Shown: one piece after another, positions 485 to 49,240 of the stretch | Numbering within the stretch: the stretch's first letter is position 1 | How the letters are laid out: each line of letters opens with the position of its first letter | Virus record (IMG/VR): IMGVR_UViG_3300025015_000010 | Coordinates: 64,001-128,000 of that record | Length of the DNA stretch: 64,000 nucleotides | Origin: a virus | Reading direction: 5' to 3' (one strand) | Notes under the pieces: generated by a model | The model's input: only the letters and a program-made list of their open reading frames with translations | The model's database searches: none | What the model was told of the DNA's origin: nothing | Made by a program: the position numbers and the translations under genes

Positions 485-689
485 CAGGCTTATGCCTTAT
501 TTACATGTAAAGCCTAAGTTAGCCAAAGTTCCCTAATAAATAGCTAACAAAACCTGTCTACCTATGCTAAACAAAGATTCTATACTGTGGTAAGACAAGT
601 CGTATATTTGGTGTATTTTTCGGTTTCAACGAGGTCTCTTGACCTCGGGTAATAGACCTGATATAATTTATGATAATTGGAGATACTTT

Positions 690-1757: not shown

Positions 1758-2427
1758 ACGTTAGTCTCCATCCGTTAGTTGACTTAGAGCCGCGTTCAAC
1801 TAGGCAAAGTCCATTTATTTGTTCTTTAATTGTTCTGGATGTTCTGTCTGGATAAATCGTCTGTACAGATGGTACCTCGTGGCCGGGGTCAACAGACAGG
1901 TTTGTTACCCGCATCGGAATTCCAAACATATTAAATTTCGACAATCCATTGGCCTGTTCTACAGATTGTTCATAGTAGAGTGTGCTATTGGAAGCGGGAA
2001 GTCTTCCTGTCTTAGTCAAAAGGACAAGGGCCTTGACAGTTTTGTGCCCTAATTTGATACCAGCCCTTTTGAATATGTCACTGCGAATGACATTATTAAG
2101 AAAGAATGGGTAATTAGAAAACTGTGCTTCGAGCATTATCCCATTCTTGGCGAAATCCACATCTGAGCCAAGAAACCGGACTGCGGGAGGCACCGATGGC
2201 CCTGATATCCATCCAGATGACCCCAGAACGCGCTCCAAATAGGCGTTAGTGGCTACTGGATCAAAAATCAGATGTCCTGATTTGTTTTTCTGTAGAGATC
2301 CTTTTAGGTACAATGGCATATCCTCTGCGGCTTTTAGGATATCTGCCCATTCTTTTGCCGCTTCGTCTGATAATAACTGTTTTACCCCATTAAAATCTTG
2401 CCATTGAACTTTAATGTTCACCTCCAA
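1741..2427 (-). CDS. Type II restriction endonuclease, BglII-like
   Basis: LIFDPVATN, FLGSDVDFAK, EAQFSNYPF (E-x-Q) and PASNSTLYYEQ match BglII motifs as I recall them. Convergent with the MTase. Confidence 0.88.
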   Translation of the reverse strand: MEVNIKVQWQDFNGVKQLLSDEAAKEWADILKAAEDMPLYLKGSLQKNKSGHLIFDPVATNAYLERVLGSSGWISGPSVPPAVRFLGSDVDFAKNGIMLEAQFSNYPFFLNNVIRSDIFKRAGIKLGHKTVKALVLLTKTGRLPASNSTLYYEQSVEQANGLSKFNMFGIPMRVTNLSVDPGHEVPSVQTIYPDRTSRTIKEQINGLCLVERGSKSTNGWRLTFKRLS

Positions 2428-2527
2428 TCCCTATTTTTGTGTATCGGAGGCTGGTGCCCAAAGCTGAAGCCTTGGTTATAAAATCGGTCAAAAAAATCGC
2501 CGATTGTAAGTACATCCTGAATTATAC

Positions 2528-2557
2528 GGACGAGCGTTCTCAGATAGTGCTAGACTT
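2528..2557 (+). promoter_or_regulatory. Class-2 promoter (GGAC...AGTGCTAGACTT) upstream of the transposase
   Basis: Same motif and spacing at 38181, 40998 and 56986(-). Core also at 19396 and 31565. Confidence 0.6.
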
Positions 2558-2594
2558 CAAATAGCAGATGTCACATAACTATTTGGAGTTAGAA

Positions 2595-3605
2595 ATGTCT
2601 ACAACACTACCGTTCCCTAGAACAGATTTTGAATTCCATGACATGTTTCCAAATGACAGGGCGTGCATTGAATACCTGGCCGAGCTACGTTGGTCCGACG
2701 GCTTTATATGTCCTCATTGTGAGTCACACGAAGGTTATTGGAACGACAAGCGCCTGTATTTCGAGTGCAAATACTGTCACAAACAGACCTATTTAACAGC
2801 CGGGACTGTGATGCACAGTTCCAAGATACCTCTAACGGAGTGGTTCTTAGCAGCGTGGTTTATGGCTACGCTTAAACCTGGGATCAGCGCTTATCAATAT
2901 TGGGAGCGTTCTCGGATTGTAAGTTACAAGACCGTGTTCAATATGCTGCATAAATTGCGTTTCGGTCTTGTAGATCCGAATCCGTATATTTTGGAAGGCA
3001 TGGTCGAAGTGGACGAGGCACTTCTTTGGGGCGAAAAACAGCCGAAGGGCGTCAATAAAGGGCCGAAGGGTAAGATCATTTTGGCTGGCGCCGTAGAACT
3101 CAGAGAGCGCAAGGAAAAGAAGAAACATTTCCCGAATTATTACGTGTCCAGAGTACGTTTACGTGTCGTGCCCAATCGCTCAGAAGAACATCTAGCGGGT
3201 TTCGTTTATGACGCCGTAGCACCTGGAAGCATTGTTTACACAGATGCTCATGCGAGTTACCAAAACCTGGGCGGATACTATGATCATCACGTAATTAGTG
3301 AAGCCCATGGAATGTCCGCCGATAGCGTACTACCAGCATTTCACCAGGTCATCGGGAACTTTCGGGCGTGGATTATCGGTACTCACCATGGCGTAAGCTC
3401 GAAACACATGCAGACCTATGCCAATGAGTTTGCATTCAGAGTGTCCACGACGTTTGACCAGTTTCTGGCTTTTCAACAGATGCTTGGTTCTTCAGTCGTG
3501 GCGCGAGGCCCGACTTACCCAGAACTTTACAATGTCGGCCAAAAGGGTGGTTATGCCCATCTTGGGGACTGCAACCTGGGCTCTTTACCGCTCATAACGT
3601 TCTAA
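2595..3605 (+). CDS. IS1595-family transposase (ISSod11-like, DDH), intact
   Basis: CxxC...CxxC Zn ribbon, VEVDE, VYTD, FHQVIGNF..W..GTHHGVS.KH..Y.NEF.FR. Start chosen from the RBS and alignment to 41489. Confidence 0.92.
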   Translation: MSTTLPFPRTDFEFHDMFPNDRACIEYLAELRWSDGFICPHCESHEGYWNDKRLYFECKYCHKQTYLTAGTVMHSSKIPLTEWFLAAWFMATLKPGISAYQYWERSRIVSYKTVFNMLHKLRFGLVDPNPYILEGMVEVDEALLWGEKQPKGVNKGPKGKIILAGAVELRERKEKKKHFPNYYVSRVRLRVVPNRSEEHLAGFVYDAVAPGSIVYTDAHASYQNLGGYYDHHVISEAHGMSADSVLPAFHQVIGNFRAWIIGTHHGVSSKHMQTYANEFAFRVSTTFDQFLAFQQMLGSSVVARGPTYPELYNVGQKGGYAHLGDCNLGSLPLITF

Positions 3606-3673
3606 TAAGTTAGGATAGTTAAGTCTAAGTTCTAGTGATATTTATAATCACATGTAAATAAGGCATAAGCCTG

Positions 3674-5850: not shown

Positions 5851-6531
5851 ATGAAAAGAACTAGTTGGAGCGACGAGGAATTTATAGTCGCTGTTAAGTC
5901 GAGCATTTCTATTGCTGAAACGTTAAGAAAGTTACGCCTTGTACCGATTGGCGGTAATTACAGAACAGTGCATAGAAAGGTCAAAGAATTATCGTTAGAT
6001 ACGAATCATTGGCTTGGCCAAAAACACTTGATTGGAAAAAGCCGAAAAGGAATAGGGCAGAAACCTCTTACGGAAGTGCTACTTGAACATAGCGAGTACA
6101 GTCGAGGAAGTATTAAAAAGAGACTTTTAGCAGAGGGTGTTCTAAAAAATGAGTGCGCCATATGCGGGCAAGGCCCTGTTTGGAATGGAAAACCGCTTGT
6201 TCTAACTTTGGACCATATAAACGGCACAAACAACGATAATCGGCTAGAAAATCTGAGAATAATTTGTCATCATTGTGGTAGTCAACTCGAAACTTTTTGT
6301 GGCAAAAAGAATAAGGGGAAAAAATATACAGAGGAAAGTGTCTGTTTTAATTGTGGTAAAAAAGTAGAGCCTTATGCAAAACACTGTGTTGATTGCTACC
6401 ATAAATCAATACGAAGGATTGAAAGGCCTCATATAGACGTTTTGAATAGTGAAATAGATGAGTTTGGATATGAAGCTGTGGGAAGAAAATATGGAGTATC
6501 AGGTAACTCGATAAAAAAATGGGCAAAATAA
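5851..6531 (+). CDS. HNH homing endonuclease adjacent to a tRNA
   Basis: LTLDHINGTNNDNRLENLRIIC, Zn ribbons, C-terminal HTH-like segment. Confidence 0.88.
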   Translation: MKRTSWSDEEFIVAVKSSISIAETLRKLRLVPIGGNYRTVHRKVKELSLDTNHWLGQKHLIGKSRKGIGQKPLTEVLLEHSEYSRGSIKKRLLAEGVLKNECAICGQGPVWNGKPLVLTLDHINGTNNDNRLENLRIICHHCGSQLETFCGKKNKGKKYTEESVCFNCGKKVEPYAKHCVDCYHKSIRRIERPHIDVLNSEIDEFGYEAVGRKYGVSGNSIKKWAK

Positions 6532-6561
6532 CCAGCCTCATTGGTTTAATAAAATACAGTC

Positions 6562-6637
6562 GGGGGCGTGGCGCAGCGATTAACGCAGCGGACTTTTAAT
6601 CCGATGATCGCAGGTTTGAATCCTGCCGCCCCCACCA
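6562..6637 (+). tRNA. tRNA-Lys(UUU)
   Basis: Acceptor stem GGGGGCG/CGCCCCC, anticodon loop CTTTTAA, T arm GCAGG-TTTGAAT-CCTGC, encoded CCA. Confidence 0.92.
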
Positions 6638-6658
6638 CATTTTTAGAAAGTAGGAAAG

Positions 6659-8515
6659 ATGCTGATTAAGCTAACAAAATCCTTGTGGATTGATCCGTCC
6701 GCTATAGTAACTGTTACTCAGAAGTACGATTTCACTACACCAGGACAGACGCCAGCAATTAAAAAGCAGTGTTCGGTACTCGCGTCCTGTGGCAATAAGC
6801 AGTTAGAATATCTTGTAGATGAACTTGCTGATACAGTGAGCAATCAGATTAATATTGCCGTGGGGCACGTCTGATGTGTGAACAGTGTGTTGCAAACGCT
6901 CATGGGTGGATAGAAATACTGCCTGGTTGGCAGCTTTGTCGTGCCCACAAGAGCGGTAACGACATGAAAGCCGGTCAGTGGGGACTGCTAACTTGCAATG
7001 ATCCTAGCTTAATTTTGGCTACTGACCCAAGAACAAGTGAGCACCATGACTGTTGTGCCCACGAAATGTTTACTGGACTAGGTGGCGTCCAGATATACTC
7101 AGAAATTTGGTTTTCTATTCTGAAGGCAGCTAAGACTGTTGGCTACAGTGATAACGATGGTTCGTTGGAATCGTGGCTCATGGAACGAATCTGCAAGTTG
7201 GTCAAAGAAAATCTAGGCAAAGTCCCATTTCGTATAAATCGATCAGGCACGTGGATGGGTGGTGTGGCACCTGAGTTGGAAGATGATCTGCTAAAATATG
7301 GTGAAGTGGATGTATATGCTACAACCGAAAGTGAGGAAGAATGCTAACAGTTTCGGCCATAGTAATTTCCTTATATGTTATATTAATGTCTGTGCATGTA
7401 GGATACAGACTAGGTTTTGATCGCGGCCAAAGGAGCGGTATTAGTCAAGCTGAAAGACTGTTAGGCGCACAGAAAGAAGCCTTTGAGTGCTCGCAGTTGG
7501 CTGACAGATGTGAAGCTTCGGCCGAGCACTTAGTCAGTCCGATGTATGAGGTTCTATATACCCAAGAGACATTTGAGAAGTTACGGCAAGCTGGGCCAAA
7601 AGCACCCGATAAGGTTTATCCAGAAGATGACGATCTTTGAATTTAATTATGATACTGTTAATAGCTGGTCTTGCTCTGTATATAGCTTTAGCGAGGGACT
7701 AATTTGAGACCTGAAGAAACCGTCGAGAATCACCGTCGCACAATAGCCAATTTAGCCAAGAATAGCCTGTCCGAGCACGTGATCACCCAGAGGTCTGAGT
7801 CAGATTTAGTCAAAGCCTATATTTGTCGAGGACCTAAAAATTCGTTTCACTGGTTTGGAGTTATCTTCGCGCCAAGGTTGGTAGTAGTCTATGGTGATAT
7901 AGGGGATTTAACTCTGAACGTGAGCCAGCAAGACACTCGTGCGTGGGCTTTGGTATCCGATGAACTAGACTATGTGCTTGGTAAGGCTGTTCGCCCAGAG
8001 TTAGACTTCTTCTTAGAAGAAGCTAAGCGAGCTATCGAGGACATTCGTAAAGACGAGCCGGGCTTAGCTGAAGGACTAGATGATGCCATGTCTATGTTGC
8101 AGTACGATATGGATGATCGATCTTGGCACGAGTTATTCTATGAGTTTGCTAATACAAGCGAAGCGCCAGACTGTACCGACTTTTCGAGCGAAATGCTGTG
8201 GTGTTTCCACGCTCTGAGGAAGTTTGCCGAGTTGTTTAACAGGGATTTGCCGACAGCAGTACAGGAAAGGTTAATATGAGCATAGAGACCGATTTTGTAA
8301 AAGGCTGGACTCAGCATGTCGATAGGCTGGAATTAGCGAATCAAATTCGCGCTAGCCTACCGGTTGCGGCTATTCTAGCCACACGGCTCGTTGACGAAAA
8401 TCTAGATGAGGTAACCGAGGCCGTTTTAGTTGAATCTGCACTGAGAATTGCTCAGAAGTTAGTTATAGGTGCAGACGATTTGGCAGCTAGAACGGTAGAT
8501 AGCAAAAATAGCTAG
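6659..8515 (+). other. Run of hypothetical phage ORFs (6659-6874, 6874-7347, 7341-7640, 7704-8279, 8276-8515)
   Basis: RBSs and overlapping stop/start codons. No recognisable motifs. Confidence 0.65.
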
Positions 8516-8527
8516 AAAGTTTGTAGT

Positions 8528-8947
8528 ATGCAGACGTTTCTACCTTATCCCTCGTTTAGTCTGACCGTAGAAGTGCTGGACTACAGGCGGTTGGGGAAAC
8601 AAAGAGTCGAAGCGGCACAAATATGGCGTGTCTTAATGGGAAGGACAAAGTCATCCGCTTGGAAGAACCATCCTGCCGTGTTAATGTGGCGCGGATACGA
8701 AGACGCGCTTGCTCTGTATGCGAATGTATGCATCGGTGAATGGATTCGCCGTGGATACAAAAATAACATGCTATTGATGAGTCACGACCAACACCTGAGA
8801 ATGCCGAGATGGCTAGGCGATGCTGGATTCCACGCTTCGCACCGAAGCAATCTGCTCCGCAAGGATCACTCCTACTATAGTCAGTTTAAGTGGCCCGAGC
8901 CAATTGATTTACCCTACGTTTGGCCAGAAAGTGAGACAGCTAAGTGA
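8528..8947 (+). CDS. Pyrimidine-dimer glycosylase-like protein (MSMEG_6728 family)
   Basis: MQTFLPY...LDYRRLGKQRVEA...NHPAVLMWRG...SHRSNLLRKD. Confidence 0.85.
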   Translation: MQTFLPYPSFSLTVEVLDYRRLGKQRVEAAQIWRVLMGRTKSSAWKNHPAVLMWRGYEDALALYANVCIGEWIRRGYKNNMLLMSHDQHLRMPRWLGDAGFHASHRSNLLRKDHSYYSQFKWPEPIDLPYVWPESETAK

Positions 8948-9405
8948 AGAACGATACCGGGCCGATTTTATATGAACTAGACAATGCGCTTATGCTGGCT
9001 ACAACGGCACACGCGGGCCAAATCGATAAGAACGGTGTGCCGTTTGTTTGGCATCCTATTAGGGTCGCGTTAAAGTTGTCAGAGCCAGACCGTGTAGTTG
9101 CGCTACTACATGACGCAGTAGAAGATTCCACAATGGATTTTCAGGATCTATTGAATCTAGGTATTTCATTTGAAGCCGTCGAAGTAATTAAAGTTTTGAC
9201 CCACGAGGACAGTATAAGTTATGACGATTACGTTGAGCGCGTGGCTAATAATCCACAGGCCGTTCGAGTGAAAGTGGCTGATCTGTTAGATAATTTGTCT
9301 GAGAGTAGGCGATATAAAGGGGATGAGCAGACTCGTGAGAAGCACAAGAAGGCTTTGTTAAGGCTGACTGGATGCACGTGGGAAGATTATGTTCAAGGCC
9401 ACTAG
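8944..9405 (+). CDS. HD-domain hydrolase (RelA/SpoT HD, Mesh1-like)
   Basis: AHAGQIDK, HPIRV, ALLHDAVED, VKVADLLDN. Confidence 0.88.
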   Translation: MKNDTGPILYELDNALMLATTAHAGQIDKNGVPFVWHPIRVALKLSEPDRVVALLHDAVEDSTMDFQDLLNLGISFEAVEVIKVLTHEDSISYDDYVERVANNPQAVRVKVADLLDNLSESRRYKGDEQTREKHKKALLRLTGCTWEDYVQGH

Positions 9406-9727
9406 CGGTGTAGCAGGCACATTCGAGATTTCAGATGTTCCAGTGTCCCTGGTGTTCGAGCCAGAAGATGTAGGCGCGAGTTACCACAATCAAGGCGGGT
9501 GTACTGTTTATTTGCATTATGCGTCGAGTAATTGTTTGACATCGGGCTACCCCGTTAGTCCAGGTGCATTTATTGATCGAAGTTGGACTGGAAGGATTGT
9601 GATTAGTAGCCCAGATGGCGCTGTGGCTTTTTTCCCAGGCCCATTTCCAGCTACGATGCATGCTGTTTGTGGCAAAGGACTCAAAACATCACTGACTTAT
9701 ATCAAGATGAGCAGAAAAAGTAGTTGA
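9389..9727 (+). CDS. Hypothetical protein
   Basis: Fills the operon gap. Confidence 0.55.
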   Translation: MFKATSGVAGTFEISDVPVSLVFEPEDVGASYHNQGGCTVYLHYASSNCLTSGYPVSPGAFIDRSWTGRIVISSPDGAVAFFPGPFPATMHAVCGKGLKTSLTYIKMSRKSS

Positions 9728-9751
9728 CATTCAGGTCAGACATGCTATAAT
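9724..9751 (+). promoter_or_regulatory. Sigma70-type promoter
   Basis: TTGACA-16 bp-TATAAT, with TG extension. Confidence 0.75.
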
Positions 9752-9757
9752 TTTGGC

Positions 9758-10414
9758 ATCAAATACCCGCGTACACCATATCTAACCTGTTCACCTACAA
9801 TCGACGAATCCGACCGACTTACGGTCGATCTCGCTTGCCTCTGTAACAAGCCTTTGGTCGCAACGATCAAGCTTGACGGCTCCAATGTGCAGCTGACTTG
9901 GAATCATGTCGCCGCCCGTAACGGGGCCACAGCCAACCATCCTAGTTTCAATATGTTAAAGCAGATCCATGCCCAAATCAGGAATCAGATTCCTGAGAAT
10001 GTAACGGTCTATGCTGAGTGGTGTTATGCTAAGCACAGCATTCACTACACAGGTGAATTGGCACTTAGGTCGTTGCTTCGTTTGTTTGGTGTTCATGATG
10101 ATAGTCAAAAATTCTGGTATAGTTGGCAGGACGTAGAAGCCCTGTCTTTGAGCCTCGGATTAGATACTGTTCCCGTTATTGGGAAATTTTCTTTCAATTT
10201 TCCCGCCGAAGTGGTCGCAGAAAGTGGTAGACTACAGTATGGAATTATGTCTAAAGGACATGAGGGATTCGTGTTCAGATCCGCAGGCATGATTCCAGAC
10301 AGCGATTTTTCTACCAATATAGGTAAGTGGGTGCGTCCAAATCATGTCCAGACAGATGACCATTGGTCAAAAAGTTCAATTGTTAAGAACGAAGTCTCAC
10401 CGACAGGTATCTAG
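9758..10414 (+). CDS. RNA-ligase-family nucleotidyltransferase, apparent ATC start
   Basis: KYPRTPYL N-terminus, KLDGSN (motif I), YAEW, EGFVFR, KWVR. Confidence 0.8.
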   Translation: MKYPRTPYLTCSPTIDESDRLTVDLACLCNKPLVATIKLDGSNVQLTWNHVAARNGATANHPSFNMLKQIHAQIRNQIPENVTVYAEWCYAKHSIHYTGELALRSLLRLFGVHDDSQKFWYSWQDVEALSLSLGLDTVPVIGKFSFNFPAEVVAESGRLQYGIMSKGHEGFVFRSAGMIPDSDFSTNIGKWVRPNHVQTDDHWSKSSIVKNEVSPTGI

Positions 10415-20600: not shown

Positions 20601-20991
20601 GCTCAAGCCTGTTAATATAGTTCTGGATTGTTTCTGCGCTAACACTGCCAGCAGTACCGACATAGTAAGATGGAGACCATAAGTGACCGCCCCACAGTTT
20701 GTTCTTGATCATCGGATGTTTCAGAAACAAGGATCTGGCTGTACGTCCTTTAAGGATTTGAATTGCACTGGCCACAGAAATCGCAGGAGGAATCGAAACG
20801 AACAAGTGAACATGATCCGGTTGAATTTCGATAGCAATAATTGGCCAGGCACACTCGTTGCAAATATTTCTGAGCAACGCTTCGAGACTGGTTGCTACAT
20901 CTTTGGTGAGAACTTGTTTTCTGTACTTAGGACACCATACAATGTGATATGCTGTTTGATAAGTGCAGTTGCGATTGCTTACGACATTCAT
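20581..20991 (-). CDS. tnpA: IS200 Y1 transposase
   Basis: YHIVWCPKYR, PDHVH, LWSPSYY. Confidence 0.95.
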   Translation of the reverse strand: MNVVSNRNCTYQTAYHIVWCPKYRKQVLTKDVATSLEALLRNICNECAWPIIAIEIQPDHVHLFVSIPPAISVASAIQILKGRTARSLFLKHPMIKNKLWGGHLWSPSYYVGTAGSVSAETIQNYINRLEHVKNRK

Positions 20992-33747: not shown

Positions 33748-33936
33748 TAGGCTTATGCCTTATTTACATGTAAGGTTCCAGTTAGCCTAAACGCCCCGAT
33801 AAATAGCTAACAAAAGCCGTTTAGGGCACTAATGCCAGGATGTCTAGTCTTGGTTCTTATCGACGGCCAAGTCCTGTCCAAGGGGTTTTACGGTGTTTTG
33901 AGTAACATAGACGACCATCTTTATAGGGAGGTCGTC

Positions 33937-34347
33937 ATGGGCAGTATACAGAGGGCTAAACTAGTCGAGGCAGCGTCCCAGAGGTTAGAAAAGGAACGAA
34001 TAGCTTTCTACGATTATCTCGCTGAGTTGACTAATGCTGATTTTGTCGCAGAGAGTGGGATAGCCAGAGGAGAAATGGAGCGACGCAAATTAGTTTTAGA
34101 ATCTCGCCAGGCGGAATATGATAAGGAATTTAAAATGTACATTCAGGATTTACATGAAGAAAACATAAGAGAAAGTCAGAGAATTTCAGCAGAGAGTCAG
34201 AAACTCACGGCATCGAGTCTTCGGTGGAGCAAGATTGCTGCTGCGGCGGTTATTGCTTATGCAGTAGCTACTGGAGTACAAATCTATTTTTCTATTATTT
34301 GGCATGTACCCGCAAATGTGCCTATACTTGTTCGATTGATACGTTAA
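33937..34347 (+). CDS. Coiled-coil protein with C-terminal TM helix (cargo)
   Basis: GGAGG RBS, hydrophobic C-terminus. Confidence 0.7.
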   Translation: MGSIQRAKLVEAASQRLEKERIAFYDYLAELTNADFVAESGIARGEMERRKLVLESRQAEYDKEFKMYIQDLHEENIRESQRISAESQKLTASSLRWSKIAAAAVIAYAVATGVQIYFSIIWHVPANVPILVRLIR

Positions 34348-34390
34348 TAGACACATTCCTCGGAGTAATTTCCGAGGAATGTGTCTATTA
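34345..34390. terminator. Long perfect hairpin between convergent genes
   Basis: TAATAGACACATTCCTCGGA-loop-TCCGAGGAATGTGTCTATTA. Confidence 0.75.
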
Positions 34391-34395
34391 CTTAG

Positions 34396-36375
34396 TTACG
34401 CCCCAAATCCTCGTACTTCCGGCCCATCTTCCCAACGGTCCTTAAGAACCGACTGGACAGCCTCTAACAATACTTCCTGGCTCAGTACAGTCAACCCTCG
34501 ATGCTCAACCAGTCTCACGGCGTAAAGCAGAGATTTTTTGATTTCCCCGCCCGATAACTCAGCCTGGGCCAACTCTTCAAAATTCACGTTACCTAGCTTG
34601 GTACAGTCCGCCAGTAGCCCGCGCCAGATAGCTTCCCTGGCTTCTTCGTCTGGCAAGTCGAATTCCAGGACAGCCGCAACGCGCCGAATAAGTGCCTCGT
34701 CTAGGGCTTCCTTTCGGTTGGTCGCTAGAATTACGCAGCCGTTGAAGCGTTCGATTTCTTGGAGCAGCACGGCCACGTCTTGAGCTTCCCACGTGTGGCT
34801 AGTCCCGCTACGGGCGTAGAACAGACTATCGGCTTCGTCAAAGAACAGCACGGCCTTGCCTTCGTGGTCGTCTTTAGCCGTTTGGAACACTTTGGCGATG
34901 TGCTTCTGAGTCATGCCAACCCAATGGCTGATTAGCTGGCTGGAATCGACGGTCAGCAACGGCCAGCCGAGTTCACCGGCTACGGCTTGCGCGGCGAGTG
35001 TCTTGCCTGTTCCTGGTAGCCCCGAAAACAACAATCCAGGCCCGGTTCCGTAAGCTATCTTCTTGTCCAGCCCCCAATCGGCTAGGTAAGAACGGTCAGA
35101 CTTCAGGGCTGAAATCGTCATTTCGATGGTTTCGCGGTGAGCATCAGGCAAAACCACGTCGGCAAGTTTCACTATGGGTCGAATACACCGTAGCGAGCCG
35201 CCCGCCTCTATCGCTTCGGGCTCCGATTTCCCAGGCTTGGCTATAAAGTCAACGTCTCCATGCCCAAGGAGATAACGCGCCAAGTCTTCGTCTACGTAGA
35301 AATCTGTCGCTTCAACATGTCCTGCCTTGCCAGAAACTCGCACAAGGCCAGATGTGTGCAATCTGGCCTCAGGGTAAAGATAGCGGCGCAAGTCTAAGCG
35401 TACCGCTCTAGTTCCACCCATGACCTCAAGGAGTAGCCTTCCTGGCGTTTTGGGTCGTCCTGCTGGCTCGTCATTTCCACCGAACATAAAGAACGGCCTA
35501 TCATCGCTGGTATCCCGGCCATTCAGAGCAAGAAACACCAGTGCGTCAATTTCAGGACTGGCTAGATGTTCCTGCCTGGCCAGATGGTGTAACGGTGTAT
35601 CGTCCCAACGGGCAGATTCGCGTTCCACGATAAGCGCCCGCTCCAGTTTGCATAGCTTGTCTTGAGCCTCGGCATCTTCGTCGTCGTCATCGAGTGCCCA
35701 AGGTGGCCTACGTAGTCTCCTGGGTCGTTCTGTGCAGCGGCCCGCCCTGGCTTCACAGCATTTCAATATCAAGTCCAAATAATCGGTATAAGTAGCGCAT
35801 GGAGCCACACTCGAAGACGGTTCAGGCACGCCGTAGTCTTGCCCCGTGAGTCTGGTTAGCAGCACTTCACCGACTCGATAGCCTTTGAGTTCGTGCCAGC
35901 GACCGTTTTCAAGTTGTATAACCAACTTGGATTTAATGAGTGGTGCGTTTCTATGCAAGGCACGACTAGCTAGAATCCTGTCCATCGCCTGGGTACTCAA
36001 GGCAGGTAATATTGCTGTAATTTCTCGCTCAGGCCCGCCTTTGCTATCCGCCGCGAGCAACAGCCAAAGTATGCTTTCTTCGATGGCTGTCAGTGATAAC
36101 TCACCGATGATCTTATCCCAAAGCAACACACAGCCTTGTTCCTGGGCTGCACGGCGAAGTTCAGCCATGCTCGCCCGGATAGGTGTAGTCTCTAATAATA
36201 AATCTCTGGGTGGCGCTTCAGGTGGGATTTCTACAGGTGACATAGCCCGGCGTGCGTGTCGCAAGTACCTGGGCAGTTCTTCGGGCGGGGAACCAATGCT
36301 GTCTAGTACATTTCCGAGCCGAAACCCAAGCTCAAGGAAATTGCGGTCCAACTCGGTAAGCGGGTTATCCTGCAT
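34396..36375 (-). CDS. AAA+ ATPase (SpoVK/CDC48-like C-terminal domain), GC-rich cargo
   Basis: GLPGTGKT, LFFDEAD, ILATN, RR. TTGACA-17-TATAAT promoter at ~36473-36501. Confidence 0.9.
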   Translation of the reverse strand: MQDNPLTELDRNFLELGFRLGNVLDSIGSPPEELPRYLRHARRAMSPVEIPPEAPPRDLLLETTPIRASMAELRRAAQEQGCVLLWDKIIGELSLTAIEESILWLLLAADSKGGPEREITAILPALSTQAMDRILASRALHRNAPLIKSKLVIQLENGRWHELKGYRVGEVLLTRLTGQDYGVPEPSSSVAPCATYTDYLDLILKCCEARAGRCTERPRRLRRPPWALDDDDEDAEAQDKLCKLERALIVERESARWDDTPLHHLARQEHLASPEIDALVFLALNGRDTSDDRPFFMFGGNDEPAGRPKTPGRLLLEVMGGTRAVRLDLRRYLYPEARLHTSGLVRVSGKAGHVEATDFYVDEDLARYLLGHGDVDFIAKPGKSEPEAIEAGGSLRCIRPIVKLADVVLPDAHRETIEMTISALKSDRSYLADWGLDKKIAYGTGPGLLFSGLPGTGKTLAAQAVAGELGWPLLTVDSSQLISHWVGMTQKHIAKVFQTAKDDHEGKAVLFFDEADSLFYARSGTSHTWEAQDVAVLLQEIERFNGCVILATNRKEALDEALIRRVAAVLEFDLPDEEAREAIWRGLLADCTKLGNVNFEELAQAELSGGEIKKSLLYAVRLVEHRGLTVLSQEVLLEAVQSVLKDRWEDGPEVRGFGA

Positions 36376-36693
36376 GGGCGTTCTCCTTTTTAGGACAAAG
36401 CTTATTTGTTCTTGGACCGAATTTCTCCATTATTGGTATTTATTTGTCATCCTAAGTTGGATGATGGTCAGGCATTATACACAATAGGTACATAATGTCA
36501 AGGATGAACTGTGCATATTAGTGCTAGAATTAAATTATGTCTAAACCCATGATTCAGTCACCGCCCGAAATCGACAAAGATGAGATGTCTAATCGTATTT
36601 TTAGTTTCCTTTCATCAGAAGGCCTATCGTTAAAAGAGATGTGGGAAGTCGGTGACTGGTTTTCTAAAGAAGCTCATCTTAAATATGTCGAGG

Positions 36694-36993
36694 CTAGACA
36701 AAGACTTTCTCACTAGTATTCGGTTTTAATGCCAGGCGTAGGTTGTCTATAACCCTGGAGTCATTTACTCCAGACATAGCAATAATAAAAGCCACAGCGC
36801 CTAGATAGGCATTGTCACTTAGCTTTAAGTTCAGAGCGTCTTTCCCTCCGACACTGACAGCTAACGTATTGATATACTTACCGAGTGAAGTTAAATCATA
36901 GCCAACCGGAAGCCACTGCACTGGCTGATGCCCCATGACATAGGCAACACGACCAAGAACAGTTGTTGGGTCAATGATGTTTACCGTGTCCAT
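36694..36993 (-). CDS. Hypothetical protein (cargo)
   Basis: AAGGAGG RBS before the ATG at 36993. Confidence 0.55.
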   Translation of the reverse strand: MDTVNIIDPTTVLGRVAYVMGHQPVQWLPVGYDLTSLGKYINTLAVSVGGKDALNLKLSDNAYLGAVAFIIAMSGVNDSRVIDNLRLALKPNTSEKVFV

Positions 36994-37096
36994 GAGTGCC
37001 TCCTTTAGTGGCTTAATTTCAAAACCAACTGTAACAACGCTTGGCACTCGCCCCGGAGTTCGCCTCCATCCTTCCTTTGATTTACTGTGCTCTAGG

Positions 37097-37957
37097 TTAA
37101 GGTTGCCAAGTTTCAATAACTACGATCATAAAACCATCTGGCCCTTGCCAGTCATCGCCGCTTGAACATCCTAGTCCGTGGACGTTTGGGCAGAGCACCA
37201 AAGGTCCACTTTGGTCGGCAATGAATTCGGTGGCGTCGCCCATTCCGCGTGGGTTTACAGGATCAATTCCTACACCAAATAGAAGTTGCATAGGTTTGCC
37301 AACAGGGAACATGCGTGAGTCACCGAAGGACTCTGCCTCAGATGATCCTTCAGGCCCGTGGTATCGCCAGTCAGACGCACATCGCCATTTGCCTTTAGCG
37401 CGTATTCTTATGTGATCCCCCGCTTGGATTGTAACTTTAGAAACATTTTGCCATCTTCCGTCACCGATTAATAATCCTACTCGTTGCTTGTAATTATGCG
37501 TATTGTCTGGAGTCCCGGCAGAGGTTATTTCGGCAAGCCAAGAGGTAATACTCTCTAGTAGCGGTGCCAAAGACGCGATAGTCTTCTCGCCTAGTCCATT
37601 AGGGTGGCCTGGGGGCTCAATTCTGGATTGGATTGTCGCTATTCCAGCCCAAACCAACTCTCGTTGTAGCGCCAAGTATTCGTCGCGTAACTGCGTGGGA
37701 GAAGCAGCTTGTTCTGCTACGGATAGTTTCTTTCTTAACGATTGATTTTCTTGTTGAAGTTGTACAACGGTGTCAGAAGAGGTCACAGGTGTTGCACGGT
37801 TGGTGGCGTTCAACTCTCGTTGTAGTGCATCGATCTTATGCTGAAGTTCAGCAATGGCTGTCACGTCTGGTGTGGCTGATGCTGCGGGCGTGCTGTTACC
37901 GCATCCGGCTAAAGCTAACCACGCCGCGCATAAACCTCCTAGTGCCCACTGTCCCAT
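37097..37957 (-). CDS. Lipoprotein with coiled coil and C-terminal beta-sandwich-like domain (cargo)
   Basis: LAGC lipobox, GGAGG RBS. Confidence 0.75.
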   Translation of the reverse strand: MGQWALGGLCAAWLALAGCGNSTPAASATPDVTAIAELQHKIDALQRELNATNRATPVTSSDTVVQLQQENQSLRKKLSVAEQAASPTQLRDEYLALQRELVWAGIATIQSRIEPPGHPNGLGEKTIASLAPLLESITSWLAEITSAGTPDNTHNYKQRVGLLIGDGRWQNVSKVTIQAGDHIRIRAKGKWRCASDWRYHGPEGSSEAESFGDSRMFPVGKPMQLLFGVGIDPVNPRGMGDATEFIADQSGPLVLCPNVHGLGCSSGDDWQGPDGFMIVVIETWQP

Positions 37958-38033
37958 ATCCTGCCTCCCTCCGAGAGGCGGCGTAATCGTCCTTCCATGA
38001 GAAAGGCGGGTACGCCGCTGATTGGTACTTCCC

Positions 38034-38127
38034 CTCGGTCGCACGAGTATCAATAGGGAAGGAGCACGCTATGTCCCCGTCCTCTGGGCGGGTACGTGCT
38101 GGCGTGCTCCCTACTCGTGCGACCGAG
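38034..38127 (-). ncRNA. Candidate structured leader RNA
   Basis: 16-bp perfect outer stem and 9-bp inner stem, directly after TTGCCT-17-TATCCT. Confidence 0.5.
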
Positions 38128-38248
38128 TGCCAACAGGATATCAGAAACAACTCAAAAAGGCAAGAAGTTACTTGGAGCCAAGGACGGGCGTCCTCAAATA
38201 GTGCTAGACTTCAAATAGCAATTGCCACATAACCAACTGGAGTTAGAG

Positions 38249-38398
38249 ATGTCTAGCACATTACCGTTTCCAAGAACTGATTATGAGTTCTACGAATTGT
38301 TTCCAAATGACCATGCGTGCATTGAATACTTAACCGCGCTACGGTGGCCAGATGGCTTCGTATGCCCGCACTGTGAGTCCCACGAAGGCTATTGGAAT
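38249..38398 (+). pseudogene. Transposon B transposase, N-terminal part
   Basis: Near-identical to the 2595 protein up to EGYWN. Resumes as DKRLYF at 42563. Confidence 0.92.
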
Positions 38399-38700
38399 CA
38401 GGCTTATCCGTTATTTGCCGGTAAGGCTTAGGTTAGCCTAAAAAGGCCAATAAATGCCCTTTGCGGCATTTAATCCCGCACGATATGTCCGGGGCAGACC
38501 CAATAGGGCTAATCCTGAGTTAGCATTTTTACGAGGTTTCATCGTCAGTTTCAAACACAGCTAGTCAGGAGACATTTTATGAAGACGCTGGGAGTTATCG
38601 GTATAAGCGCCTTACTCGCTTATAGCATATTTCAGTTATTGGCCTTCGTCGGCCCAGGGAAAATATCGATGCCAATGTACGAGGGCACTCATAAGACAAA

Positions 38701-39171
38701 TTAGTCACTAGTCTTTTCCCTGCGGAATATGAAGTACAAAGTCAGTGCTGCTAGAGAAGCCGAAGTAGCGAGTTGGATTACTTTCTTTTGTACTTGTGTA
38801 GAATATGCTTTTTTGTAATAGCACATGTTTTTGAAATGTTCGCAGTTGAATCTCTTTGTCCACTGAACATTAATCAGTGCTTCAGCCCGTGCAATAATTT
38901 GGTTAGCATGTTCTGGACTCTTAGGGTATCCCGCCGTAACAGCCCCGGATTTTACGGCTTCAATTCTTCCTCCGTGATCTTCTATGAATGTTTTGAAGAA
39001 TTCAGCCTTTGTAACTTTCGCGACACCTGCATTACTGTTGTTTGGCGAGTTGTGATAATAATGTCCTGCACCGTCGTAAATTCCATAATGGTCTACCTTA
39101 ATTGGTAGTCCTTTATAGACGGCGGGGATGTCGTGCAAGACTATGTACCAACCTTTCAACTTCGCGCTCAT
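38701..39171 (-). CDS. LRAT-like permuted NlpC/P60 protein with C-terminal TM (cargo)
   Basis: HYGIY..G...H and NCEHF motifs. Confidence 0.8.
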   Translation of the reverse strand: MSAKLKGWYIVLHDIPAVYKGLPIKVDHYGIYDGAGHYYHNSPNNSNAGVAKVTKAEFFKTFIEDHGGRIEAVKSGAVTAGYPKSPEHANQIIARAEALINVQWTKRFNCEHFKNMCYYKKAYSTQVQKKVIQLATSASLAALTLYFIFRREKTSD

Positions 39172-39292
39172 AATTTTACTCCTAGATAATTTGAGCCGCG
39201 TTTCGTCCGGCCTGAGTCTATCGGTTGAACCTAGCACCGTCTAGGTTCCTATTGACAAGCTGCCATCCGGCTCTTTATCCTACTTCAAGTTA

Positions 39293-39441
39293 CGTCACCG
39301 GGCTGTAGTACATAGGGAGAAACTCTGTTTTCTCCTCGGGGAGCAAGCCCCGCCCTGTCCATTGGGGACAGGCGCGGCGGCTATGCTTGCTCCCCACCTT
39401 GCCCGGTGACGGACAGTACGCCGTTCGCGTCTGTCCTTTTT
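39293..39441 (+). ncRNA. Candidate structured RNA with intrinsic terminator
   Basis: Two nested 11-bp perfect stems after TTGACA-18-TATCCT, then a hairpin plus T-run. Confidence 0.5.
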
Positions 39442-39466
39442 ATTTGCCTTCGGGCAAGGAGGCGGT

Positions 39467-39851
39467 ATGGGCAAGGCAATGTTCTTGGCCATTGTTTTAA
39501 TTTCGTTTTTAGGTGGTTGCTCGTCCGTAGCAACTATGCGCGAGGCCGATCCCACCGAGGGCGCGTCGAAAACATATTCCGCTGATGTGCAACGGGTGGT
39601 AGACGCAGTCAGGCAAGCTATAACAGATGCAGGCTTCCCGTGTAGACGGCGGTGGCTGGTCAATCGTTGCAAGTAAGGGAATGTCAGCGTTTAGCTACGG
39701 CGAGTTTGTACGTGTCATGGTCGCTCCAGCATCGAACCCTAAGTCGTCTATTGTGCATGTTCTTACACGGCGGCGACTGGCCACAAATGTCACGGCCAAG
39801 GGTGATTACTCAGAAGCTATATTTGCTGGTATAGACCTTAGATTGCAATAA
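39467..39851 (+). pseudogene. Frameshifted lipoprotein (cargo)
   Basis: LGGC lipobox in 39467..39676. Plausible C-terminus in another frame from ~39638. Confidence 0.6.
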
Positions 39852-39896
39852 TTGTTTAGCTTCGCGGATTCATTGACTATTGCTGGAGAATTTTCG

Positions 39897-40874
39897 ATGC
39901 TTAGAAATGTGATATACGGGTTTTCGGTGGCCCTGTTGTTTAGTGCTTGTGGAGGTGGCGGCGGGTCGTCCAGTGCAGCACCAGTGCCAGGACTTCAAAC
40001 ACTAGTAGTTCCGTCTGTAAGTGATGTCAGGTTGGACGATGTAAATAGCCAGGGTATTATGCCGAAGAATTTACTTCTTGCTAGTGGAGTTTGGCTTACT
40101 GATCTAACAGGTGATGCCGTCGGAGGCAGTAGCGAGAGAGATATCAGTAGTATGGGCTTATTGCGAGACAAGAATAGCCTGTATGTGGCTTTAGTATTGA
40201 CCGCAGGAGGTGTTCCTGACGTGTCTGGCACCATACAGTATATTTTTAAGATTCAGGCCAGTGGAGCTACACAGAGGTTCGCGTTTAATGGGGATCTTAC
40301 TGGATATGAACCTCTTGTGAGCAAATTCACTGGGACTAATAACGTTACCACCACAGTAATTACTGATGGTCTTGGCGAGGTTTATGCTAATGCTATCATA
40401 TTTGAGATTCCCCTTGCTAACATTACAAACAGCGGCGGAGGGTTATCAGGAATAACAGCAACTGGTTATGTTCAGGCCGCCAATGTAGTAGCCGATAGCA
40501 CGCCGAGTGTATTGCTCGATTTTGGAGGTTACGTGCCCCTAGGTGACGCTAGTAATGATGGCACCTTTAGTAGCCTTCCCGTGTATGTTGCCCCACTGGT
40601 TACTGTTATTTCACTCAATCAGTCTGTGACAGTTGAGTGGTTTGTTGGAAATCCACCAGTAACTACAATTATTGAAACCGATATTCGGTGGCGTCCGAGT
40701 ACGATTGCTACGACCACTGTTGGAACTCAACATGCTATGTCAAATCCGGGGACGATTACTTCGTTTACCGATTCTTTTCTGCCGACAGCCCGAGGAACTT
40801 GGTTATTTTCTGTCTATGTAACCGACGGAGTGACAGAAGCAACTTCGACGGAGAAAGTTGTGATTGTTCAGTAA
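39897..40874 (+). CDS. Ser/Thr/Gly-rich beta-strand lipoprotein (cargo)
   Basis: FSACGGGGGSS lipobox. Confidence 0.75.
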   Translation: MLRNVIYGFSVALLFSACGGGGGSSSAAPVPGLQTLVVPSVSDVRLDDVNSQGIMPKNLLLASGVWLTDLTGDAVGGSSERDISSMGLLRDKNSLYVALVLTAGGVPDVSGTIQYIFKIQASGATQRFAFNGDLTGYEPLVSKFTGTNNVTTTVITDGLGEVYANAIIFEIPLANITNSGGGLSGITATGYVQAANVVADSTPSVLLDFGGYVPLGDASNDGTFSSLPVYVAPLVTVISLNQSVTVEWFVGNPPVTTIIETDIRWRPSTIATTTVGTQHAMSNPGTITSFTDSFLPTARGTWLFSVYVTDGVTEATSTEKVVIVQ

Positions 40875-40887
40875 GTCCGTAGTACCG

Positions 40888-40941
40888 CAAATAAACAGTC
40901 GTGTTTGCCTTTTCATTGAGACAAACACGACTGTTTTATTT
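40888..40941 (+). terminator. Intrinsic terminator
   Basis: AAACAGTCGTGTTTG...CAAACACGACTGTTT followed by a T-rich tail. Confidence 0.7.
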
Positions 40942-41072
40942 TCGCTCATAATTCAACCTGTATGAGCATATCAAAAGCAAGTTATATGTTTTGTCAAGGA
41001 CAGTATCTAGTAAATAGTGCTAGACTTACAATAGGCACGTTACTTGTAAATTTATAATTAGGAGAAAATGGC

Positions 41073-41459
41073 ATGTCAATCTACATACCCGAGAGCGCGG
41101 ATATATCAGGTTTGGACGCATCATTCTGGAAGAAGAAAAAGAAGCCTGCCCCCGCTGTTAAACTGTCAGATAAATTGATGAAAGTTAAGACTTCAGCAGA
41201 ACAGAGCATGTTTAGTACAAAAGCTATTAGGATGACGACTGAACAAAGGTGCATTGCAATTGGTGGACGCTGGGACTCATCTACCAATAAGTGCTTCAAA
41301 CGAGTATGTAACAGCGCTGATATAACTTTGCCACAGCCAGTAGACCCTTATGCTCAGGCAAAGGCTGATTGTGCTGCTAAGGGCGGGCAGTGGTATCCAT
41401 TTGCTAACCCACAGAAGTGCTTCAAACGAGTATGTAACGAGGCTGATGCTGGATTTTAG
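41073..41459 (+). CDS. Small protein with two Cys-rich repeats (cargo)
   Basis: C...GG.W...KCFKRVCN twice. Identical 24-bp DNA repeat at 41289 and 41415. Confidence 0.75.
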   Translation: MSIYIPESADISGLDASFWKKKKKPAPAVKLSDKLMKVKTSAEQSMFSTKAIRMTTEQRCIAIGGRWDSSTNKCFKRVCNSADITLPQPVDPYAQAKADCAAKGGQWYPFANPQKCFKRVCNEADAGF

Positions 41460-41488
41460 GCCAATTAACCTAGTTGATCGGATGAGTA

Positions 41489-42481
41489 ATGTCTAGTAAG
41501 TTACCATTTCCAAGGACAGACCGTGAATTCCTGTTGATGTTTCCAAACGAGGAAGCCTGTCTTGAGTATTTGATTGCGCTGCGTTGGCCCGATGGTTTTA
41601 CGTGCCCGCATGATGGATCACAAGAAGCCTATTGGCGACCAGGTAGAAAAGCGTTTGAATGCAAATACTGTAAGTATCAAGCCTATGCCACGGCCGGAAC
41701 GGTCATGCACAGTTCTAAGATACCTCTGACCGAATGGTTTTGGGCCGCTTGGCTTATGGCCACGCTCAAGCCAGGAATCAGTGCCTATCAGCTTTGGGAG
41801 CGGTCAATTATCAAGAAGTACGAAACAGTATTCAGCATGCTTCATAAACTACGCTTTGGTCTAGTAGATCCGAATCAACGGTTGTTCGATGGCATGGTCG
41901 AAGTCGATGAAACCTTCGTATGGGGCGAGAAACAGCCCAAAGGAACTAGAGGCCCCAAAGGTAAGATCATTATGGCTGGTGCTGTAGAACTCAGACACCG
42001 ATCAGAGAAAAAGAAGAATTTTCCAGATTACTATGCTACAGGCGTAAGGTTTCGAGTTGTACCCGATAGATCGGAAGAATCGTTAGCAGGCTTCGTCTAC
42101 GATTCTGTGGCAGAGGGAAGCATGGTCTACACGGATGCTCATGCGAGCTACCAACATTTAGACGTTCTATATGAACACTATATTGTTAGTGAATCCCGTG
42201 GGATGGACGCCGATAGCGTACTTCCGCACTTCCACCACATTGTTGGTAATTTCAAGGCGTGGATCATTGGTACGCATCACGGTGTCAGCCCGAAGCATCT
42301 TCAAACCTATGCCAATGAGTATGCATTTCGAGTTTCGCATACCTACGACCAGTTTCTAGCGTTTCAGCTAATGTTGGGCTTTTCGCTCGTTTCTCGCGGT
42401 CCAACTTACCCAGAGCTTTATAACGTGGGCCAACACGGCGGATATGCCCACCTCTCAGGCGTGGGTCTAGGCTACTTATAG
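41489..42481 (+). CDS. IS1595-family transposase (ISSod11-like), intact
   Basis: VEVDE, VYTD, FHHIVGNFK.W..GTHHGVS. Confidence 0.92.
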   Translation: MSSKLPFPRTDREFLLMFPNEEACLEYLIALRWPDGFTCPHDGSQEAYWRPGRKAFECKYCKYQAYATAGTVMHSSKIPLTEWFWAAWLMATLKPGISAYQLWERSIIKKYETVFSMLHKLRFGLVDPNQRLFDGMVEVDETFVWGEKQPKGTRGPKGKIIMAGAVELRHRSEKKKNFPDYYATGVRFRVVPDRSEESLAGFVYDSVAEGSMVYTDAHASYQHLDVLYEHYIVSESRGMDADSVLPHFHHIVGNFKAWIIGTHHGVSPKHLQTYANEYAFRVSHTYDQFLAFQLMLGFSLVSRGPTYPELYNVGQHGGYAHLSGVGLGYL

Positions 42482-42562
42482 CAGAATAGTTAGGGCTAGT
42501 TAAGTCTATGATAGGGCTAATGTTAAATTTACCGGCAAATAACGGATAAGCCTGATTGGAAT

Positions 42563-43423
42563 GACAAGCGCCTATATTTCGAGTGCAAATACTGTCACAA
42601 GCAGACTTACTTGACGGCTGGAACCGTGATGCACAGTTCCAAAATACCTTTAACGGAGTGGTTTTTGGCAGCATGGTTTATGGCTACGCTCAAGCCTGGA
42701 ATTAGCGCGTATCAGTATTGGGAGCGTTCGCGCATTGTAAGTTACAAAACCGTATTCAATATGTTGCACAAGTTGCGTTTCGGTCTTGTGGACCCAAATC
42801 CGTATACTCTGGAAGGTATGGTCGAAGTTGATGAAGCCCTTCTTTGGGGCGAGAAACAGCCCAAGGGCATCAATAAAGGTCCGAAAGGTAAAATTGTATT
42901 GGCCGGTGCTATCGAACTCAGAGAACGCAAGGAAAAGAAGAAGCACTTCCCGGATTATTATGTGACTCGGGTACGTCTACGAATCGTGCCTAATCGTTCG
43001 GAAGAGCACTTAGCTGGCTTCGTTTACGATACCGTAGCACCTGGGAGTATTGTTTACACAGATGCCCACGCGAGTTATCAAAACCTGGGTGGTTACTACG
43101 ATCACCACGTTATCAGTGAAGCTCACGGAATGGCCGCCGATAGTGTGCTTCCAGCATTTCACCAGGTCATTGGGAACTTTCGGGCGTGGATTATTGGCAC
43201 CCATCACGGTGTAAGCTCGAAGCACATGCAGACCTATGCCAATGAGTTTGCTTTTAGGGTGTCTACTACGTTCGATCCGTTCTTGGCATTCCAGCAAATG
43301 CTAGGTTATTCAGTCGTAGCGCGAGGCCCGACCTATCATGAACTCTATAACGTAGGCGAAAAGGGCGGTTATGCCCATCTTGGGGACTGTAACTTAGGTT
43401 CCTTACCGCTCGTGATGTTCTAA
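42563..43423 (+). pseudogene. Transposon B transposase, C-terminal part
   Basis: Highly similar to 2595..3605. Confidence 0.92.
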
Positions 43424-43500
43424 AAAGTTAGGATAGTTAAGTCTAAGTTCTAGTGATATTTATAATCACATGTAAATAAGGCATAAGCCTGTGAATGGGT

Positions 43501-48977: not shown

Positions 48978-49240
48978 TATTTGGTCAGTCAGCCTTCAAA
49001 TTGTTGATAAAAATAGCTGACTGACCAAATATTTTTAACTAACCAGATAGTCTGTTCTATTTATGAGATGTATTCGTAGCAGTACCTGGTTAGTTATATT
49101 TATAGGCCAGTAGTGGTATCGGTATGCACTCTACTTTGCGCTGGTGCTCGCCTTCAGCCTGTCTAACCGTTTTCGAGGAGAGCCGACTACTGGGATCACT
49201 ACTGGCCTAGTTTTTTATAGTTTTGACTCGTTTCCGAGTC
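48978..49240 (-). ncRNA. Candidate polycistronic ncRNA array (four stem-closed units)
   Basis: Perfect IRs of 6, 13, 11 and 16 bp in tandem, with A-rich linkers, downstream of a promoter. Confidence 0.6.

Follow-up and report, generated by a model that had tools for sequence, protein, structure and literature searches.

A candidate conserved leader RNA at the head of cargo operons in IS1595-family transposons of a groundwater phage

Accessory genes travel as passengers of insertion sequences, in the present case into phages, and the expression of such cargo once it has landed in a new context is poorly understood. This question is raised by a 64,000-nucleotide stretch (hereafter the window), which corresponds to bases 64001-128000 of the 168.7-kb IMG/VR virus record IMGVR_UViG_3300025015_000010, a groundwater phage with an estimated completeness of 77%. 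The window holds two IS1595-family transposons, the inner one (C) nested in the outer one (B), and, as a preliminary description of the sequence had reported, each presents a promoter followed by a hairpin leader and a lipoprotein gene, the two leaders being the 5' ends of the two cargo operons. The same description proposed that leaders B and C share one motif, either a conserved RNA or a folded single-stranded DNA (ssDNA) site involved in cargo capture. Here we ask whether these leaders belong to a conserved family, whether leader B is part of it, and whether such an element would act as RNA or as DNA.

Leader C and the start of its operon consist of the following parts.

39252-39281, plus strand: promoter TTGACA-18-TATCCT, matching the consensus at 10 of 12 positions in the promoter scan
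39293-39411, plus strand: leader core, a three-way junction in minimum free energy (MFE) and co-transcriptional folds and in the covariance models R1 and R2 introduced below
39293-39303/39401-39411, plus strand: P1, the 11-bp closing helix
39304-39314, plus strand: junction, UGUAGUACAUA
39315-39336, plus strand: P2 hairpin
39338-39395, plus strand: P3, a long hairpin with apical CCUGUCC-AUUGG-GGACAGG
39411-39436 (hairpin) and 39437-39445 (U-tract), plus strand: intrinsic terminator directly 3' of P1, GGACAG-U-ACGC, loop, GCGU-CUGUCC, then UUUUUAUUU
39444-39469, plus strand: hairpin UUGCCUUC/GGAGGCGG that pairs the GGAGG of the Shine-Dalgarno (SD) sequence, the ATG of the first cargo gene being at 39467
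39467-39676 and 39627-39851, plus strand: first cargo gene, a small lipoprotein with a broken frame, as read from the translation

The promoter, the 11-bp stem, the inner stem and the terminator are thus all present as first described, the last of these being overlooked by a simple terminator scan owing to its bulge. The fold of leader C is much more stable than expected from dinucleotide shuffles (z -7.19, with none of 200 shuffles as good). Only about 5 nt lie upstream of P1, and they add at most three weak pairs. In simulated co-transcriptional folding P2, P3 and P1 form, then the terminator and finally the hairpin pairing GGAGG, and blocking the 5' arm of the terminator costs 15.5 kcal/mol with no replacement pairing. 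No competing antiterminator, of the zipper type or any other, was found for C in the co-transcriptional simulations.

Relatives of the transposase were found at three kinds of locus, among which L024 (from Logan) and L028 and L029 (from JGI and Logan) are intact B-like transposons that have a transposase module in common with B and an AAA+ cargo protein 86-89% identical to that of B. The segment comprising the first gene, leader and promoter is non-homologous between B and these three elements, the homology of B and L024 ending at 38178. On the cargo strand of this divergent region, L024 and L028 carry TTGAtC/TTGAaC-17-TACAAT, followed by a folded domain (z -6.1 in L024). This domain is closed by a helix of 12-15 bp and contains the unpaired stretch UACGUAGUACAUUCUUU, a hairpin of 6 bp and a long hairpin whose apical part reads UUUGCCC-AUUCG-GGGCAGG. 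A leaderless open reading frame (ORF) running through the L024 leader was also considered and dismissed on reading, since it is not conserved in C.

Folded separately by MFE, leader C and the L024-type leaders adopt the same three-way junction. Consistent with this, a covariance model built from C alone (R1) finds with cmsearch the leaders of L024 (29.7 bits, E 2.7e-5) and of L028/L029 (32.2 bits, E 1.5e-6), all in the expected place and on the expected strand, which is the slot occupied by leader B in transposon B. Matches of R1 and of R2 (built from C, L024 and L028) also cover the leader copy of a C-type transposon in another phage (L011), the members of the family being C, the L011 copy, L024, L028 and L029. 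In the model-guided alignment 93% of cells are paired, as against 42-55% when partners are slid by one to three columns, and the pairs changed on both sides number 18 compared with 1-6 in the slid controls. The base of P3 in C and L024 can also be aligned by sequence, with two compensated changes.

In the common design, helix P1 closes the domain, an unpaired junction of conserved sequence comes next, hairpin P2 varies, and the long hairpin P3 is conserved at its base and in its apical stem-loop. Junction GUAGUACAU and hairpin P2 are present in C, L011, L024 and L028 and absent from B, and the P3 base G-GAG-A-GC and apical CUGyCC-AUUsG-GGrCAG are found in C, L024 and L028. P1 begins just after the transcript start predicted from the promoter, at the head of the cargo operon, both in C and in B. 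By these sequence comparisons, leader C truly belongs to a small family of conserved leaders at the start of IS1595 cargo operons. The family also appears to be uncatalogued: Rfam 15, run on the whole window at the gathering threshold, returned only a tRNA, no covariance model matched either leader region, and nothing meaningful was obtained for 37800-39600 or the L024 leader at E up to 10. The conserved structured motif foreseen in the preliminary description therefore does exist, by way of C and the L024, L028 and L029 leaders and not by way of the resemblance of B to C.

The leaders are also better conserved than the rest of their elements. Between L024 and L028, the 150-nt block with the leader is the most conserved part of the whole element (98.0% vs 74-95% for the other aligned parts), and the sole difference in a stem turns a U.G into a C-G pair. 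Between C and the L011 copy there are two changes in 105 transcribed leader bases and none in the 62 bases of terminator and SD hairpin (the terminator being 100% identical), as against 83% identity for the transposase gene; both promoter hexamers are likewise unchanged, while 39250-39270 has five substitutions, four in the spacer and one just before the -35 hexamer. The first genes behind the three leader types (B, C and L024) are mutually unrelated, and the L011 lipoprotein departs from that of C after about 10 codons. Because the leader is conserved and the genes behind it are unrelated, the promoter-leader unit can be regarded as a conserved module ahead of variable cargo. A self-contained promoter and leader of this kind, better conserved than the transposase and common to different transposon lineages although the genes behind it are unrelated, suggests a control unit that is portable.

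The reading that we favour, at somewhat better than even confidence, is that of an uncatalogued cis-acting 5' leader RNA module, serving as a portable expression platform at the head of IS1595 cargo operons. Starting from the observed folds, which are conserved and covary, and from the presence and position of the promoter, the following course of events could be proposed. Each cargo operon would start at its own sigma-70-type promoter, assuming that this promoter fires, and its transcript would begin a few bases before the long closing helix, giving an mRNA with a very stable 5' structured domain. This domain would protect and insulate the 5' end, and the module would act in cis, as RNA, for whatever cargo follows. 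In C, where the terminator and the hairpin masking the ribosome site come next, the cargo is predicted from thermodynamics to be off by default, provided that the terminator works as its structure suggests. The SD sequence is paired in the folds of both B and C, and that of L024 lies in a hairpin loop beside a UUG start. Read-through or unmasking would probably depend on a factor, presumably acting in trans, with the conserved junction and apical loop as its recognition site; unpaired bases that stay conserved amid varying stems are what would be expected where a protein, a ligand or RNA polymerase binds. In all three leader types, the hairpin after P1 repeats one strand of the apical stem (GGACAG/CUGUCC in C, CGUACCCGCC twice in B and UCUGCCC twice in L028); this recurrence hints at an alternative pairing, and no stable alternative fold is predicted. 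If the leader senses something, it would represent a new class of regulatory RNA; if it only insulates and stabilises, it would be a natural counterpart of the insulator parts of synthetic biology.

A more far-reaching version, which we regard as unlikely, is that the promoter and leader form a mobile expression head that is under more constraint than the transposase and is exchanged among lineages, with cargo recombining behind it; a factor of the host, phage or transposon, or RNA polymerase itself, would read the junction and loop, and the cargo would be expressed in one particular state only, for instance during phage infection.

The good promoter and the strong intrinsic terminator that bracket the C structure, with no antiterminator predicted, could also be those of a free-standing gene for a trans-acting small RNA (a folded RNA of about 155 nt), lying beside the cargo only by position, and in L011 the promoter and 5' part do persist, 98% identical, detached from the cargo gene. 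Such a gene is nevertheless unlikely, since in L024/L028 and B a clear terminator is missing and the leader runs directly into SD sequence and start codon, and the module is always directed into the cargo operon; no complementarity to a target was found, though no search aimed at it was made. By analogy, a multi-helix RNA with conserved unpaired bases, placed between promoter and terminator and heading a multi-gene operon in a phage-borne element, might instead be a processive antiterminator similar to put, whose folded domain would modify RNA polymerase in cis so that only the transcripts bearing it pass the following terminator and reach the distal cargo. We consider this quite improbable, given that the leader has no sequence or model similarity to any catalogued RNA and that L024 and B have no terminator to be overcome.

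Whether leader B is a further member is less easily decided. Its surroundings, read on the strand of the B cargo, are the following.

38163-38158 and 38140-38135, minus strand: putative promoter TTGCCT-17-TATCCT, read by eye, matching 8 of 12 consensus positions
38034-38127, minus strand: leader core, with a perfect 16-bp P1 (38034-38049/38112-38127), a stacked 10-bp stem and an apical hairpin (38060-38111)
37955-38033, minus strand: rest of the 5' untranslated region (UTR), with a hairpin GGCGUA..UACGCC and an SD-masking hairpin GCCUCUC/GGGAGGC, the ATG being at 37957
37097-37957, minus strand: first cargo gene, the 286-aa orphan lipoprotein P0001
38179-38192, no strand: palindrome AGGACGCCCGTCCT, where the conserved transposase module borders on the swappable cassette of promoter, leader and gene; kept in L024 and L028

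The 16-bp stem is present as described; the inner stem, given before as 9 bp, measures 10 bp (GGGAGCACGC/GCGUGCUCCU) and is stacked directly on P1, and further hairpins follow downstream. In the transcribed sense 10-11 nt remain unpaired on the 3' side of the core, and the CGUACCCGCC of the core has its second copy in the UTR segment 37955-38033. The fold is again far from that of dinucleotide shuffles (z -6.97, 0 of 200 as good). As had been stated, a lipoprotein gene stands behind both leaders, with lipobox signal peptides ending ..LALAGC in P0001 of B and ..SFLGGC in the ORF downstream of leader C. P0001 has no relative in IMG/VR, and among 5.8 billion proteins only a 100% identical fragment of it was retrieved.

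Under default filters R2 does not find leader B. When the filters are switched off, it aligns P1 alone on the minus (transcribed) strand (9.4 bits) and P1 with the inner hairpin on the plus strand (20.7 bits), a preference for the non-transcribed strand that arises because B has its unpaired stretch on the other flank of the hairpin. A model of P3 only, built without B (R3), gives the inner hairpin of B as its best non-self match in the whole window (128 kb searched), with 17.1 bits on the plus and 14.8 bits on the minus strand, corresponding to E-values of 0.035 and 0.15 by a rough calibration. Moreover, the base of the B hairpin agrees with C and L024 at all seven positions where these two do not differ, a compensated change included; its apical stem is similar while its loop differs. 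Leader B thus has in common with the family its slot, its overall layout and perhaps P3, but not the junction, P2 or the loop. We put the odds that leader B is homologous to the C/L024 family, as a degenerate or rearranged relative, at roughly even. As a speculation, a flip of the B interior between the perfect 16-bp arms would account for its orientation. The hairpin at 48984-49025 gave a weak, non-significant match to the P3 model as well (12 bits, E ~0.7).

A contender only a little weaker than even is that B and C are unrelated and that C alone belongs to the family, B being an independent, very stable 5' hairpin that may, for instance, stabilise the mRNA or serve as an RNase III site, and that shares words with C by chance, as GC-rich hairpins may. 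The failure of R2 to recover more than P1 on the transcribed strand argues for this, as do the lack in B of GUAGUACAU, P2 and the AUUsG loop; the position of B in the exact slot of the family member in L024/L028, the rank of its inner hairpin with R3 and the seven matching positions argue for kinship instead. Direct comparison of B and C also speaks for independence. The words of the proposed common motif are present, and so is the compensatory C-G/A-U change, yet the similarity does not rise above chance: under four scoring schemes the local alignment of B with C reached z 1.3-1.8, 25-45 of 400 shuffles scored equally well or better, and a reverse-complement control outscored it. CCCGCCC and GGGGACA occupy non-equivalent structural positions in the two folds, these common 7-mers pairing differently in each.

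The word pattern GGGAGCAnGC..CCCGCCC..GGGGACA has no match in IMG/VR; five matches in genome_contigs (596 Gb of genomes) and three in metagenome_contigs were rejected as chance, all being without the closing arm and in unrelated GC-rich DNA. The preliminary description had agreed in advance to give up its motif if no further homologs appeared and if the similarity was no better than that of shuffled hairpins. Both outcomes were obtained, no homolog of the word pattern having been found, which tells against the motif as first defined; the proposed B/C motif is weak. It is unsuited as a search pattern, the C/L024 model being the usable one.

Several observations weigh against the cis-acting module that we favour. 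Only two independent lineages are available (C/L011 and L024/L028/L029), which makes the covariation in effect one pairwise comparison, and the alignment showing it was fitted to the model, although the separate MFE folds agree. The hexamers and spacer of the B promoter read as first stated, but this promoter is weak, falling below the threshold of the promoter scan. L024 and B have no clear terminator; B has neither junction nor P2 and scores higher on the non-transcribed strand. Transposon A, of the same family, carries no structured leader, so that the module is not obligatory. The large collections were scanned by exact patterns, and no further member was found in IMG/VR with three patterns, in the rest of the phage record, or at five loci with distant IS1595 transposases 40-44% identical (L030-L035), where no leader matched. 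As far as these searches reach, the leader family seems to be narrow. Finally, neither strand folds better than the other and few G.U pairs occur; attempts to assign a strand from G.U pairs or from sense and antisense energies gave no signal, which leaves an RNA-level role short of proof.

Candidates that were set aside during the pattern searches include L025 (GTAGTACAT..CCATTCGGGGC), a chance match unsupported by the model and with a fold z of -1.8, and L041, which is merely a 17-nt hairpin inside an ORF. L026 and L027, matched by a 21-nt pattern from upstream of the transposase, lie inside a coding gene and have no leader.

The equal folding of both strands and the almost purely Watson-Crick stems are also what would be expected of an element working as DNA, that is, a hairpin or cruciform, attC-like or another recombination site, through which cargo is exchanged. 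Cargo behind the leader has been swapped between relatives, a rearrangement breakpoint lies inside the leader in L011-L013 with a transposon-end 13-mer at both junctions, and elsewhere the phage has genes for a tyrosine recombinase and for Y1 transposases of the IS200/IS605 type. Even so, we judge a DNA-level function very unlikely. The only recombinase within any of the transposons is the DDE transposase, with no integrase or HUH gene inside them, and the element stands 5' of the cargo, behind a promoter with conserved hexamers, an arrangement that speaks against the attC-like ssDNA capture site suggested before. Nor do the cargo boundaries seen fall in the hairpin, a check that had also been proposed: where B and L024 differ in their cassette the border is upstream of the promoter, and for C and L011 it is about 30 nt inside the ORF. 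The L011-type rearrangement is a single event, and the similarity of transposon ends to leaders is not significant. The idea, taken from the L011 junction, that the leader mimics a transposon end was rejected on these alignments of inverted repeats with leaders, the best of which (p 0.04-0.06) involved the own ends of C.

The L011 element itself (6092-10048, also seen in L012 and L013) is a C-type transposon of another phage in which an inversion has affected everything from the 3' arm of P1, through the transposase, as far as the right end. The promoter and the 5' half of the leader, against which this part is inverted, now face the right end, antisense to the transposase gene. Both junctions carry the end-tip 13-mer AGGCTTATCCGGT, and the element as a whole is bordered by a target duplication of 9-10 bp, AAACCAATAC. 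On sequence grounds, an inversion between two inverted 13-mers would give exactly this arrangement; it would need an end-like 13-mer inside the ancestral leader.

The transposons in which the leaders reside are located as follows.

33749-43490, plus strand: outer transposon B, IS1595 family, with perfect 23-bp terminal inverted repeats (TIRs) at 33749-33771/43468-43490
38249-38428 (Zn-ribbon) and 42611-43420 (DDE part): transposase gene of B, interrupted by transposon C
38400 and 42553: ends of the inner transposon C, with an intact transposase at 41489-42481
486-3672: transposon A, third copy of the same IS1595 family

Their transposases match PF12760 and PF12762 (Zn_ribbon_IS1595 and DDE_Tnp_IS1595), and the transposase domains, TIRs and target duplication that define the IS1595 family were all found for the transposons bearing the two leaders. 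The identical nesting of C in B recurs in several independent groundwater assemblies. No match to 37000-40000 was obtained by blastn against GenBank phages, and the transposase has no relative in IMG/VR. The B cargo operon, on the minus strand and divergent from the transposase gene, encodes the lipoprotein P0001, a 99-aa ORF and an AAA+/winged-helix ATPase; the C cargo, on the plus strand, consists of the broken small lipoprotein, a lipoprotein of 325-340 aa and a 128-aa ORF, followed by the transposase.

The small lipoprotein of C is read as two overlapping frames of 69 and 74 aa, and the same two ORFs occur in three other assemblies (L014, L016 and L018). Because the split recurs there, it is not a sequencing error of one assembly, and it may reflect either a true frameshift or pseudogene or a shift that is programmed. 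The B-type cargo ATPase (34396-36375, minus strand), an AAA+ protein with a winged-helix domain (PF22977), matches the IetA models of PADLOC in its ATPase part (E 5e-34); no IetS-like protease adjoins it.

A conserved box, ATAGTGCTAGACTTnnAATAG, is found upstream of every transposase operon in the lineage (38196-38218, 41012-41034, ~2545-2567 in minus reading, and ~6163-6185 in L024), and in B, L024 and L028 it is adjoined by the palindrome GAGGACGnCCGTCCTC. Box and palindrome are probably a transposase promoter or operator with an insulating hairpin.

Transposon A has apparently split a Y1 transposase gene of the IS200/IS605 type (PF01797; 253-489 and 3586-3813, minus strand), the C-terminal part lying to its left and the N-terminal part to its right, and an intact Y1 transposase gene is present at 20611-20964. 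At genome 155175-155304 (91175-91304 in window numbering, and thus outside the window) two IS1595-type ends (AGGCTTATCGGGTTAACG..) face each other 130 bp apart, which by sequence looks like a miniature element lacking a transposase.

Among known systems, cATTpLS20, the zipper-type attenuator of conjugative plasmids, is described as a long central stem-loop with an intrinsic terminator behind it, which controls access to the genes downstream (PMC13401043). Leader C is similar in being a long structured 5' leader that heads a mobile-element operon, with a central stem and a terminator, both present in C only. The hallmark of cATTpLS20 is an upstream stretch that can pair with the terminator and thereby lengthen the stem into an antiterminator (PMC13401043). 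C lacks such a stretch; in addition, its family forms a three-way junction, and a clear terminator is missing from L024 and B. The sRNA-Xcc1 family (Rfam RF02221) is likewise a structured RNA found beside accessory genes on mobile elements, namely integrons, transposons and phages, and cmscan gave no match to it at E up to 10 in either leader region or in L024. The put RNAs of phage HK022 are cis-acting processive antiterminators, formed by a promoter-proximal multi-helix nascent RNA with terminators following; their likeness to leader C is one of layout only, with no detectable similarity.

An attC site is located 3' of the ORF in a promoterless cassette; it adopts its fold, with extrahelical bases, as ssDNA and depends on an IntI integrase encoded nearby. 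The leaders resemble it in that imperfect inverted repeats are linked to swappable cassettes, and differ in that they stand 5' of the operon behind a promoter, have nearly perfect stems and are accompanied by no integrase in the transposons, the only tyrosine recombinase of the record (genome 38703-39236) being more than 58 kb away from them. Among the titles and abstracts returned by a literature search, none dealt with a structured leader of IS1595 cargo. In their general organisation, the transposons described here are similar to IS1595 elements with passenger genes, having the transposase by the right end, TIRs of 23-26 bp, target duplications of 8-10 bp, and the cargo between the left end and the transposase.

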